DNA from: Squalus acanthias
Taxonomy: Eukaryota
DNA length: 64,000 nucleotides
Assembly (NCBI GenBank): GCA_030390025.1
Contig: CM059430.1
Coordinates: forward strand, 12,524,001 to 12,588,000
Direction of reading: 5' to 3'
Position numbers and translations under genes: made by a program. Under the pieces are notes generated by a model. It saw nothing but the letters and a program-made list of their open reading frames with translations, was not told the DNA's origin and did not search any database. Positions 34,641 to 45,060 of the stretch are shown piece after piece; position 1 is the first letter of the stretch, and every line of letters begins with the position of its first letter.

Positions 34641-35517
34641 ATTCTATTCCAAACCTTGGCCTTTTAGACAAAACCGTAAGGTTCCATAAACCACCACCAC
34701 CCCACCACCCCCACCCCGCCACCCCCAAGACATCTCAAGTTGCAATGAGCCTCCAGATACATCATTCACAAGAGAACTGTTGCAAAGATTTCCACCTTTA
34801 TGATACTTCCCTCCGACAAAACACGCTGACCCCGCTAACTTGGTCTTCCGACCTTCCTTTTGAGCTCCTTGTAAGCACATTTTTTTTTGCACAGAGATTT
34901 TTTTTTCTTCTGATCCTCTCCTGCGAAAGGTTTCACGCCTTGGCAGGTTGGCTGCTAGTACCTTGCCCAACTAACCATTCTTCAAGTGTGAGCCAGGCAA
35001 GAGCAAACAAGCTCCTCGAAACAGGTGCACATTTACATCTTGCACCCGTCAGACTCGCAGCAGAAACCCACATTTTAATTGGGCTGTGGATTATTCTTGG
35101 CTGCCAAGACGGTGCCATTACACTGCACGGAAAAGAATAAATTGAGCAAATGTTTATCGTATTAATCATAGTGGAACGGCTAGAGATGAACGATGCACAC
35201 ATTGGCTACCCTGGCAGATTTAGGTCTGAAAACACGTGAGAGTAACTCTTGCAGCGATGGGATGGCACTCGATGTACCCGAGAGATCATTAAAAGGAAGC
35301 ATTTCCACCAGTAACTCACAAGATAAGTGGAAGATATTATGTCTGGGTGGGGTTGAACTACGAGGCTTGTATTCAACTGTTAGTCCATCCTTGAACGTTG
35401 ACCATCCTAGTTACAAGTATCTTTCTTTTCTAAACAAATATGCCCCTCTTATTGCCTTGCCAGTTGCCTATTTTCCCCCCAGTGCTCTGAATAGCTGGCA
35501 TGGTCACTATAGGTAGC

Positions 35518-35745
35518 CATGATGCGGAGCGGTGTTGGACTGGGGTGGACAAAATTGAGAGGTCGCACAACACCAGGTTATAGTCCAACAGTTTTATTTG
35601 AAATCACAAGCTTTCGGAGCTATCGATCGCCCCCTCCTCAGGTGAAGTAGCTCCTTCACCTGAGGAAGGGGCGATCGATAGCTCCGAAAGCTTGTGATTT
35701 CAAATAAAACTGTTGGACTATAACCTGGTGTTGTGCGACCTCTCA
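35518..35745. mobile_element. Palindromic Penelope-like mini-element with two opposed hammerhead motifs (family B)
   Basis: 93-bp inverted arms (35555-35647 and 35654-35746, one mismatch), a 37-nt unpaired left extension and a 12-bp TSD ACTATAGGTAGC (35506-35517 and 35746-35757). Hammerhead core CTGAGGA...GAAAGCTT at 35660-35693. Confidence 0.8.
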
Positions 35746-35996
35746 ACTATAGGTAGCACCATGGGCATGAGGCTGCAATCCAACACTCTGTGGTGTGGTC
35801 TATTCCAACGCTCTATGGCAGGGCTATCCAAGCTTTTCTCTTCCCTGGTTGCATACACGCATACGATGGAGTCTCGGGGGCCACATATAAAGTTTAAATC
35901 CATATTCCCAATCAAGCAGCGTACATGTCAAGTTGCTCAAGCAATCAGATCTTGGGATTTAGGCTTTATTCACCAAATGAGGCAACTGTGCTATAT

Positions 35997-36318: not shown

Positions 36319-38946
36319 TTATAAATAGCCCCTTCCAAACCTCCAGGGACCTCAACGTTTAAAGTACAAAGTAGCAAATAAGAACTAGGGTTAAAAAAAA
36401 ATTCCAGTGCCACTCCAGGAGCGCACATCAAGAAACATCCAGACTGTGATGATGTACCCATTAAAAGGTAATGGATTTAAAGTCACACTGGAACAGACAT
36501 TTTCACACCTATAGGCACAAATAGGACTGAGTTGCCTGGGCTCGAGGGCTGGATTGCCAGGGCCCTGGGGAAGTGGGGGGAGGGGGCGGGAGGGGTAAGG
36601 GTGCTCACATCCCTTCGCCACACCACTGTTCTGGCGCCAGATATAATCAGAGAGATTCCACGTAGTTTCTGAGCTATCGTTCCACAATGGATATCCACTA
36701 TATAGCGATAGCTCAGCAACTATGTCGAGTGCCCGTCTACAAGGCGGCCTTTGGGAGACACGTGAAGAGAAATCTGCAGTGGGAGACTGCCATGCAGATG
36801 GAAGGCTTCCTGCAGCTTGCTCTGTTAGACAGCGAGCCAGGCACAGTGTGTTGTACCAAGAGCTCGTGACATCTCAAAGGCGGTTCTAGTGAGGTGCGAG
36901 GCTGTGTGTCAGATATGAATCTCCACGAAGAATTATCGAGCCAATCCAAAATATCCCTGGGATCCTGCGACAGAAGACAGGCCAAATATCTGCCCTTTGT
37001 GCATACAAAAACAAACACTGCGGAACGCAACAGGCATTAAACTGGACGGTTCCATTTTTTTTTTTGTTGCCCTCCCTGCAACATCCTGAATTGTTACGCG
37101 TCTAAAAGGCTGAAAATTGACCCGGCTCGGAGCTGTCCAACCTTCAGAAAGGCTGCAATGCGACCTCGCCCAGGAAAATCCACGCAACAGTGCCAGTTAA
37201 AGGGCTATTTCGAGATGGCTGGCCGGCCCTCCAACAGTTTGTCTCGCAGTCCAGTGAGATGCAGCAGCCAATCGCTCGCGCTGCCAGTGTTTCCAGTTGG
37301 ATTCTGTACCTTTGGCATTTGCAGCAAGCAGGCACCTGATGTCAAAACTTAACCGCGCAACAGCACAAGGAGGGCAGCACGGGAGCAAAGACGTGTGGAA
37401 TTACAGGGATGGTAGCCGGGGAGGTTGAACACAAACCCCCTACCACCAACAAAAGCACGAGATAAAAGGGAAAATGCAGGTTTACCCTAGGTGCAGGGCA
37501 GATATTTGTACGGGGATTCACGCCTGTCATCATTTTGGACTGAATAGCAAAGTGCGGCTGCTGGCCGCTCGACCATGGGGGGAATCGCGTTTCACCTCAA
37601 TCTTGCCCTCTTCGTGGTTCACATGCATGCAGCTTCCAGCAGGGGGGGTCACCGCACGGCAAACAGAAGCAGGAACTCTGGTTGATCCTTCTGCCGCCAC
37701 CTATCCACCCGCCCCAAATCGCCGAGGCTTTGAAGTCAGCTGCCGTTCCTTTGCCACCAACCTTGCAGCTAACTGAGCACTGTCTGGAGGGCTCAGCAAT
37801 GCACCAGATCACTGATTAACCCACCGAGATACCCAGGGAGCTCCTGCAAGACTCATTTCAAATTTAGCTGCTCAACTTTGGTTGAAAAATCACTGCATTT
37901 CAGAGCTACCAGGTTATAAGAACATCAGGAGCAGGAGCAGGCCATTCGACAGTTATCTGACAATTTGGGCGTGTCTTGTTTAGCAGTAACCAGCCCAAGT
38001 TCAGTGCATCATTGGTCAGTGTCTGATTAGCTGAATTGCTTCCTTCAGTCTAACGCAAATGCTACGATAAAGGGCCTGAAATTGGCCAGCATCTACTAGA
38101 CGAGAAGTTTTATCGGTTGAAATAAAATATCAACTGAAAATGTTATTTTTTTTAAAAAGCAAAATCAACAAAAAAAGTTAGAAATGAGGTGTCCGTATTT
38201 TAGTGTCCAGTTATTTTACTGGGATTGTGGAGGAAATGAATGTCCTCTGTGAAAGGCACTCTTCCTTGGTGCAAGACTCGTGCTGGTACTGCTCGGCTCC
38301 CAAAGCGCAGGTCTTGCCTGGCTGGCTGCAAGCGCAAGGTAAAAACTGCCAGGAATAGTTAAGTGTCTCAAAGACCCAGATTTAGCGGCCTTGAGGTTTT
38401 GGCGAGTCCCAGTAATCCCCAGCTGAATTTTCCCTCCCTTACGCAAGGGTGCGGAGTCCAATCACAGCCCCCCTTCCTGATACCCCGGCAAAGATTTACT
38501 AACACAGCGCAGACTAGGGATCAAACCTGGGACCTACTGCGGTGCATGTCTCAGTGTCACGTCAGGGAGCGAGTGCCTTTATCTGCTAAACCATCAGGGA
38601 TCTCCTTCATTTACTCCTCCTTCACCCACCCCGCCTATTTTCACCCTGTCCCTTTTCCTTGAGGCCTTGACTCCCTGTTGGAGCATAGGCATCTGTTGTG
38701 TGCTGGTACCTTGCCAAAATAGCCACTCGTCCTGTGGGAGCCTAAACAGTAAATGCAAGCATGCTATTTGGCCATGGGGGGGAGGGGGGGTGGTGGAGGA
38801 AGCGGGGGGAGGGGCGGGATTAAACACAGCCATGTCAGATCCTGTCCTCATTGATATCCACACTTCAGTGGGAGATATTGGATAGTATGTAAGAAGGGGG
38901 AAACTCAGGAACATGGAGGTCAACTGCACCATCCTTACTGCTATAT

Positions 38947-43470: not shown

Positions 43471-45060
43471 GGTTTTAACTTACAGTGCCATTGTTCCTTT
43501 CCAGGGGAGATCTGCAGGCATGAATGAGTTGTACAGGTCCAGAGTACAAGGTGCTCTTGTCATTCAGTGGAGCATGCAGACTGTCAGCCCCAGATCCACA
43601 ATGTGCTTAATTGACTACCAACAATACTCTGAAGCCACCAAACAGCTGCCATCCCTGGACCCTCCTTCCTTAAAATGTCAGGGCTGGGAGGAGGAGGAGG
43701 AGGGGGGGGGGGGAAAGATACTAAAACGTCGCCAAAAAGCACTGGGTTGAGATTATGAACAAGCATTCATCATTTTTTTTTTAAAACAGAAAGAAAACGA
43801 GAGAGAATTCCAAAGGCGTGCGAGGAGCAATGCTTTTTCCTTCCACTCTAGTAATTTGAATGTCAAGGTCGGAGGTCAATGGATTTTGTTTCCAAACCGA
43901 GCTTGAGAGAGAAAGGGAGAGAGAGACATTGCCCAAGGAGGGGGAAGAGAGCAGCGGCTTTGTTGCGGTGCTTGCCTCGGTCGCTGGCTCTCTGGCTCTG
44001 CCGGGACGGGACTTGCTGGACTTGCGAGAGAGAGAGAGAGAGAAGGGAGGAGCGACCAGCACACAGGAGCTCCTCTCGGCTCCACGTCCCACGTCTTGCA
44101 GAGAGAGAGAGAGAGAGGGAGGGGAGGAAATAAAAAAAAAGAAAAAAAATTCGCTCCTCCTCTTCGCAAAGCCTTCAGGATCTGCACCCGTCGATCAATC
44201 TTCATGCAAGAATCATTATCTGCAAATTGGAAGGCTGGCTGAGTGACAGCAGATTTGTCACTCTTAATGAAAGAGTGAGGGTATAAAACCCATCAGCAGG
44301 CATCTGTTCACCCGAGTGCTGCTCTTCCTTCCCTTCCTCAGCTCGCCGATAGTCACTTCGGATCGTGTGTCAATTTACAAAAGCGATACTCCTCTCCCTC
44401 GCCAAAGTGTGTGTGTGTCTCTCTCTCTCTCTCTGGGGTTTTCTCTCTCTCACACACACACACAGATTATATATGAAGAAACTCCCGTGCCAATGAAGAG
44501 AAAAGACAGATCCCGCAGTTTAAATCAGCAGCAGCCAGTCCGACAGAGCCTGGCAACTGACCACAGACAAGAGAGGTTCGGCATCTAAACCCCACAGTGT
44601 GTGGGGCTTGGCAACACTAACATGACCACTTTCTCTCTTTCAACCTCAAGTCAAAGCCTGACAGAAACAACAGGGGTTCGAGACGCGGGCTAAGTATCCT
44701 GTGACTTCAAGAGCAGAGAGAGAGAGAGAGAGAGGGGCGGGACTAAGGAGTGGAAACATAAATATCTCCAACCTGCCTCCAGGCTCCAGTGACACCCAGG
44801 AAGAGGTTAATGTGGGCGAGCTGCTCAGGACCTGTTGGGGGTTTGCAATCAGGTGTCTCATCTCATCCAATCGCCCATCACACACACACACACCAAGTGT
44901 TATCTGATCACTTTTTTTGCCCTCCCTCTCTTGCAAAAAGCACACAACATACTTTCCAGCGAGAAAGTGGCTAGCAGTTTAACTCCTTCCACTCCAGCTC
45001 AGCATTGATGGATCAATTCCTCGCCACCACTTACAGAATTCTCCCCCCCCCCCCCCCCCC
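43471..45060 (-). promoter_or_regulatory. Putative 5' UTR/promoter region of the gse1 isoform
   Basis: Transposon-free and relatively CpG-rich, with dense GA/CT and CA microsatellites directly upstream of the ATG exon. Contains an 8-bp inverted repeat at 44241-44263 and TATAAAA at 44282. The TSS cannot be fixed from sequence. Confidence 0.5.
43480..43563 (-). promoter_or_regulatory. Upstream ORF (27 codons, MTRAPCTLDLYNSFMPADLPWKGTMAL*) in the putative gse1 5' leader
   Basis: ATGs at 43563, 43521 and 43491 share a frame. TAA at 43482-43480 is followed by GTT AAA ACC and the main ATG in the same frame. Confidence 0.55.

Follow-up and report, generated by a model that had tools for sequence, protein, structure and literature searches.

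EN+ Penelope-like elements (PLEs) are recognised by having just one open reading frame (ORF), in which a reverse transcriptase (RT) is followed by a GIY-YIG endonuclease, and by tandem or inverted pseudo-LTRs (pLTRs) that hold a hammerhead. According to the accessible sections of two studies (PMC3846280; PMC8557442), their insertions carry a head-to-head inverted, 5'-truncated copy, a short target-site duplication (TSD), a tail of 30-40 bp at one end only, a TATA box with an initiator (Inr) in the pLTR, palindromic junctions, and a pLTR or tail reaching the ORF start. The inverted pLTR, the tail on one side, the TSD and the hammerhead within the pLTR have all been described for PLEs before; the formation of tandem and inverted ends is described in these sections as unresolved, and the origin of the inversion is left open or attributed to antisense self-priming. 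The minimal hammerheads of metazoan PLEs, as far as the accessible text of PMC4209133 goes, lack a helix III loop, are palindromic at 15.2-16.2, and show a bulged base between 9 and 10.1, a G10.1-C11.1 pair and a short stem I; opposite-strand pairs occur 100-700 bp apart, and monomers are inactive while dimers have low activity. In the Poseidon element of Anolis, the hammerhead lies near the ORF start and requires the protein for activity, and the protein cuts and extends both target strands in vitro, reverse transcription starting at two internal sites, between which the tail lies (PMC11167929). The available part of that source does not trace inverted insertions back to these sites, and this two-start-site, two-strand biochemistry has been demonstrated for one element only. 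Non-LTR retrozymes are short, non-coding, PLE-derived units with a type I hammerhead (PMC7229834; bioRxiv 10.64898/2026.07.22.740005), and are described in the accessible text of the latter as head-to-tail tandems that can release unit RNA between same-strand hammerheads.

In this study, a 228-base insert was analysed within a window of 64,000 nucleotides from Squalus acanthias, the window being the whole stretch of DNA examined. Judged by its sequence, it is an EN+ PLE insertion, with an inverted terminal copy, a one-sided tail, a TSD and pLTR homology. The features listed above for such insertions recur in its family, whereas the form found here is the smallest one, without ORF or promoter, and its family holds about 97,000 arms. 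It was rejected as a non-LTR retrozyme, its arms being head-to-head with one hammerhead per strand. We consider it about 70% probable that the insert consists of head-to-head copies of the 5' leader of a Neptune-like Penelope element, made in one integration by two separately primed reverse transcriptions.

Architecture of the insert and its hammerhead motifs

The insert is enclosed by the exact 12-bp repeat ACTATAGGTAGC, as the original prediction had stated, and the tail, TSD and young age assigned to it were likewise judged right (Table 1). The prediction had divided it into a 37-nt extension and a 192-nt hairpin; the 93-bp arms, their single mismatch (35634/35667) and the 6-nt loop were recovered, whereas the sum overlaps the TSD by one base because base 35746 both ends the hairpin (35555-35746, 192 nt) and begins the right TSD. 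The hairpin folds at -196.6 kcal/mol (z = -24.9), and 0 of 200 shuffles folded equally well. Contigs from the DNA run coded organism A span both insert junctions with a few differences; the insertion is thus not confined to this assembly.

Table 1. Positions of the features of the insert within the window
Feature	Positions	Strand	Remarks
Left TSD, 12 bp	35506..35517	.	ACTATAGGTAGC; sibling TSDs 12-13 bp in 37/51
Right TSD, 12 bp	35746..35757	.	ACTATAGGTAGC
Penelope 'tail', 37 nt	35518..35554	-	Leader between two putative RT start sites
Tail-bearing arm, 93 bp	35555..35647	-	Sense copy of parent 5' leader
Minimal type I hammerhead motif, mirror	35604..35645	-	Sequence; bulged base after A9 is G
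Centre junction TAGCTC, 6-nt loop	35648..35653	.	Sequence
Tailless arm, 93 bp	35654..35746	+	Second sense leader copy
Minimal type I hammerhead motif	35656..35697	+	Sequence; covariation in 77 sibling motifs
AATAAA	35703..35708	+	Mirror 35593-35598 on minus strand; same place in 97/100 arms

The tail ends at the ATG of the parent ORF (35520-35518, minus strand) and is 4 nt shorter than in sibling copies. Tail and arm together (minus strand) are 92.6% identical to the unit of the parent element L122, described below, and the tailless arm, which ends at the upstream putative RT start site, is 94.6% identical to it. At the centre, TAG matches a parent allele upstream of stem I, and TAGCTCC, which repeats arm positions 35679-35685, is likely templated filler. 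Between the hammerhead and the arm end, the conserved AATAAA is followed by a GT-rich tract in the window and in 97 of 100 sampled arms, and the pLTR thereby has an LTR-like order of TATA, start, ribozyme and putative poly(A) signal; poly(A) tails were not noticed among the inserts viewed. About 900 bp downstream, a degenerate palindrome (window 36657-36728; 36-bp arms, 78% complementary) shares a short GAGCTATCG-like motif with the arm and has no significant match to the parent unit.

Hammerheads had been predicted on both strands, and both read as claimed. The plus motif comprises stem I TCAC/GTGA, core CTGAGGA, a bulged A, a 5-bp stem II, GAAA and the palindromic AGCT, with a predicted cut after 35693; both cores are intact because the sole arm mismatch is the bulged base after A9. 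The covariance-model check proposed with the prediction did not support the call, as an Rfam search gave no hammerhead match at E <= 5, and the best match, mir-1460 (45.7 bits, where the gathering score is 74), was rejected as merely reflecting the hairpin. The folds of single arms are not better than those of shuffled sequences (z -0.5 to -0.8). The ribozyme call therefore rests on the motif and on stem covariation in siblings. Across 77 sibling motifs, a stem I pair is C-G in 51, T-A in 24, T-G in 2 and C-A in 0, and the outer stem II pair is C-G in 70, T-A in 4 and other in 3, while N7 and loop II vary freely; this covariation represents few independent events because subfamilies inherit changes. 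The conserved core and covarying stems I and II point to the minimal type I class that had been proposed. The motif has the sequence and stem features noted above for PMC4209133, and differs from those hammerheads in its 5-bp stem II, in U or C at 17 and, in one subfamily, in C at 4.

The parent element and its family

One sibling copy had a tail extended a few bases beyond the rest; the pattern derived from it gave 948 matches, several of which run on into an ORF. The element L122 (G000:C1:223719000-223728500) consists of 3,138-bp tandem units and inverted copies, with hammerhead, arm and tail at each unit boundary and an 892-aa ORF starting at the ATG of the tail. Two complete ORFs stand in tandem there, the units are near-identical, and the array is a candidate active source. 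The ORF matches RVT_1 (E 1.4e-8), its C-terminus matches the genome's Pfam GIY-YIG (PF01541) sequence at 40% identity (E 1e-15), and the linker between RT and endonuclease (EN) is Cys-rich (CHGKLCKTC). Pfam on L122 itself gave no GIY-YIG domain, and no solved-structure relative of the ORF was found, both at E <= 0.01. L122 was assigned to the EN+ PLEs because of its RT domain, Cys-rich linker and GIY-YIG-like C-terminus; the order of RT and endonuclease in a single ORF and the tandem and inverted hammerhead-bearing pLTRs fit this group. By the single criterion of the Cys-rich linker (PMC3846280; PMC8557442) it is Neptune-like; Nematis shares this motif. In Poseidon, by the available account (PMC11167929), hammerhead and tail lie inside the ORF, whereas in L122 they precede the ATG and the RT-EN linker is Cys-rich. 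The Penelope-like origin that had been proposed was thus borne out, as arm and extension are the 5' leader of this intact element.

The insert in the window is 93-95% identical to the L122 leader and contains nothing else of the unit. Its exact hammerhead variant has 2,251 matches genome-wide. Of the first 30 of these, 10 end near stem I and 20 continue upstream past the TATA box, 7 of the 20 reaching into the end of the ORF. The source of short palindromes and of long copies is therefore one and the same, the exact variant being common to both. Other candidate parents were rejected. The first GIY-YIG match (L061) and L074-L091 belong to Penelope lineages other than that of the parent, and their hammerhead differs. 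The arm has no match in L063-L091, and the arm pair at L061 was inserted separately and has a flanking repeat of its own. A second Penelope family of very high abundance is represented by L074-L091, in which open frames reach 1,004 aa and a different minimal hammerhead (CTGAYGAAAGG...CCTGAAACGTT) follows the ORF.

The arm 26-mer has 97,107 exact matches genome-wide, against 0 for the reversed control, and the family is also present in assembled contigs of runs coded organism A, C and D. Single arms, tailed or tailless, occur as well (L036, L043, L211). A search with the 228-bp unit gave 1,912 candidates, and the 40 that were scored are, the window itself aside, 93-97% identical to it. Close copies have flanking repeats of their own, 12-13 bp long in 37 of 51 copies picked by similarity, lengths that include overlap with the element ends. 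The outer ends are fixed and the centres vary, with 44 different centre strings in the 51 copies, some of which differ only in nearby stem letters.

These counts bear on the proposal that the 228-bp palindrome is itself a non-autonomous mobile unit, descended from master palindromes and kept by masking of its ribozymes. It would account for the thousands of near-identical short palindromes with their own TSDs, and some simple centres do recur, the commonest 12 times among 50 listed. The same recurring centres cross subfamilies, however, and the exact centre of the window occurs only 2 times genome-wide, against 2,221 centres keeping both stem-I starts, its second copy (L004) having a left arm of a different subfamily variant. 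Furthermore, short and kilobase-long pairs form a continuum with the same outer ends, and the unit has no TATA box. A fixed internal structure inherited by descent is thus not apparent, the predicted mobile family with a fixed junction is not upheld, and this reading, already largely refuted, is very improbable. The opposite possibility raised with the prediction, a one-off truncation, is excluded, as the insert is a routine product of an abundant element with 2,221 comparable centres.

Several further observations were made on sibling loci. Some centres contain reiterated short units (GTGAAG, TACAGG or GATA repeats; G000:C1:235640, 547691, L117), which suggest slippage or repeated templated synthesis during end-joining. 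The targets often are AT-rich positions within other LINE-like repeats, and the same target motif, e.g. ATAAATAGAGGC, recurs at separate loci. Short head-to-tail tandems of leader units (about 180-340 bp; L093, L097, L123), some joining different subfamilies, could be retrozyme-like, with two same-strand hammerheads.

Arm pairs and the origin of the inversion

The sample comprised the first 100 arms by position on contig C1, all within its first 3.1 Mb. Their 3' ends cluster at two sites separated by about 40 nt, with 61 close to the arm end, 38 close to the tail end, 0 between and 1 continuing. Sixty-two of the arms form 31 head-to-head pairs with spacings of 73-3,475 bp, and 38 lie outside pairs. 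Exactly one tail is present in 30 of the 31 pairs, and none in the remaining pair. The hammerhead region is identical between arms in 15 of 23 scorable pairs (8 of the 31 were left out because the core was missing on one side), compared with 2.4% of 1,478 cross-locus pairs. The other 8 scorable pairs are not identical, and discordant arms occur in L004, L025, L037 and L102; a single RNA template is therefore not universal, and these insertions suggest two RNA molecules in some events. Short and long pairs are one continuum with common outer ends. Pairs as short as that of the window (spacing up to 160 bp) number 14 of 31, which extrapolates to roughly 13,000 genome-wide.

The relative lengths of the two arms are informative on how the inverted half arose. 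Among 30 pairs, the tailless arm reaches farther 5' in 12 (11 without one whose tail runs into a full unit) and the tailed arm in 8 (one being a measuring-limit artefact), and 10 are equal or beyond the 400-nt limit. The same parent could have produced the inverted half by fold-back or self-priming of one cDNA, or from an antisense transcript, with no second target-primed cDNA. Self-priming on an antisense template has been proposed for rotifer Penelopes (PMC3846280, accessible part), the arms of a pair usually match, and microhomology and arm-templated filler are frequent at centres, all of which would agree with such a process. Nevertheless, a tailed cDNA cannot yield a longer tailless arm and a tailless cDNA cannot yield a tail, so that either cDNA fails one of the two classes of pairs. 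Fold-back also sits poorly with both 3' ends being fixed at two sites and with pairs that mix two subfamily variants (L004), and an antisense RNA would need to end at sense TATA+32. We regard this origin as unlikely. Two RNA-templated primings are the simplest reading, since neither fold-back explains both the longer tailless arm and the tail.

The 5' ends of the arms were also unevenly distributed. Their maximum is at the A of ACTTCAC, 7 nt ahead of the core, where four positions hold 11 of the 100 ends (Poisson p about 5e-6 relative to the flanks). A TATA box stands 30-33 nt upstream of this A in 59 of the 60 matches that bear the promoter, overlapping loci included. Among 50 listed of the 2,221 centres, 1-4 bases separate the stem-I starts in 26, and zero bases in 0. 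The sequence at the site, TTACTTC/TCACTTC, resembles the initiator consensus. Taken together, the peak, the stem-I-start centres, the TATA spacing and the initiator-like site lead us to infer that the pile-up formed where cDNAs ran off at the start of transcription, about 32 nt below the TATA box. Only a part of the arm population is accounted for in this way, because 38 of the 100 arms reach 250 nt or more upstream (the arm at 556552 was mis-scored as long through flank homology) and others stop at scattered points. In the accessible sources, a similar TATA-Inr pair is described for rotifer pLTRs (PMC3846280), and a TATA-less internal promoter for Drosophila Penelope (PMC2377424).

The pile-up is also no farther than 3-4 nt from the 5' strand of stem I, and a similar one would be expected if priming were double and the short cDNAs were copied from the 3' pLTR, with the RT stalling at the hammerhead fold. 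That many cDNAs continue far upstream is compatible with stalling, and so are the mixed counts of cap-like G: an untemplated G precedes the +1 A in 26 of 50 two-base centres, and a second test of 100 cases gave G 29, A 31 and C 40, so that the two together establish no cap signature. An RT arriving from the 3' side would, however, meet the 3' edge of the structure rather than halt after passing it, the monomer fold is not unusually stable, and the TATA spacing and Inr-like motif fit a start site. Stalling is accordingly improbable, still more so than fold-back.

The preferred reading, two primings with run-off, can be set out as follows. The parent would be transcribed from the TATA/Inr promoter in its pLTR, so that the RNA would start at the base of hammerhead stem I. 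Both target strands would be nicked by the endonuclease about 12 bp apart; one nick would prime at the ORF start codon, giving the tail end, and the other about 40 nt upstream, giving the arm end. Both cDNAs would run off the 5' end of the RNA after 90-135 nt and would be fused by end-joining with microhomology or filler. Because the insert would consist of joined run-off cDNAs, it would be a promoterless insertion by-product rather than a mobile mini-family, likely built afresh at each insertion instead of spreading as its own mini-element, and, without TATA box and ORF, probably a dead end. LINE-1 twin priming involves two cDNAs that start at internal sites, each primed by one of the two target strands, and that are linked through microhomology. 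The LINE-1 cDNAs cover different parts of the RNA and yield an inversion, whereas those proposed here overlap and would yield an inverted duplication. The in vitro support for two-strand priming (PMC11167929, available part) comes from Poseidon, an element outside the clade of the parent. As a broader statement, we lean slightly towards the view that the inverted ends of Penelope-like elements arise from twin priming on the sense transcript, with leader cDNAs running off and leaving roughly ten thousand hammerhead hairpins in this genome.

Host context and significance

The original prediction had placed the insert in a gse1 intron. An exon that reads MSHEPKSPSLG and has a splice acceptor is present on the minus strand, 4.4 kb before the window begins; on that strand it is about 40 kb downstream of the element, and its motifs make it gse1-like. 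A short motif of the first gse1 exon had no match in the window or in 100 kb beyond it; the intron location is thus plausible, with its downstream side located and its upstream exon not. A GC- and purine-rich segment with microsatellites and a plus-strand TATAAAA (window 43781-44300) is possibly a promoter or first exon, with no link to gse1.

The claim that the antisense arm comes first whichever strand is transcribed is right, as it follows from the geometry. A transcript across the locus would therefore bury the hammerhead and AATAAA in a duplex. Masking is not required for the persistence of arms, since 38 of 100 sampled arms have no head-to-head mate, and the hiding of both hammerheads in the hairpin would be an incidental side effect of the geometry. 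The benefit to the host suggested in the original prediction is conjectural: besides the arms without a mate, minimal hammerheads are inactive as monomers (PMC4209133) and the Anolis one depends on the protein. Should they be transcribed, the near-perfect 90-bp hairpins, which number about ten thousand, could supply dsRNA in large amounts.

The locus is ordinary for this genome, being one of many stumps of a very abundant element, and the population of arm pairs matters more than the locus, with moderate interest as evidence on PLE end formation. A search of openly accessible papers found none on Penelope twin priming and none on the family, which may already be catalogued, for example in Repbase or Dfam. 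What connects the biochemistry of Poseidon to genomic products is the rule of one tail per pair, together with the match between arms, the greater length of tailless arms and the stop below the TATA box. If the proposed origin is true, the genome would be a natural data set that tells twin priming from the antisense self-priming proposed in print, the intact 892-aa protein being at hand for the test, and the thousands of sibling inserts may reveal how Penelope-like elements make inverted ends.
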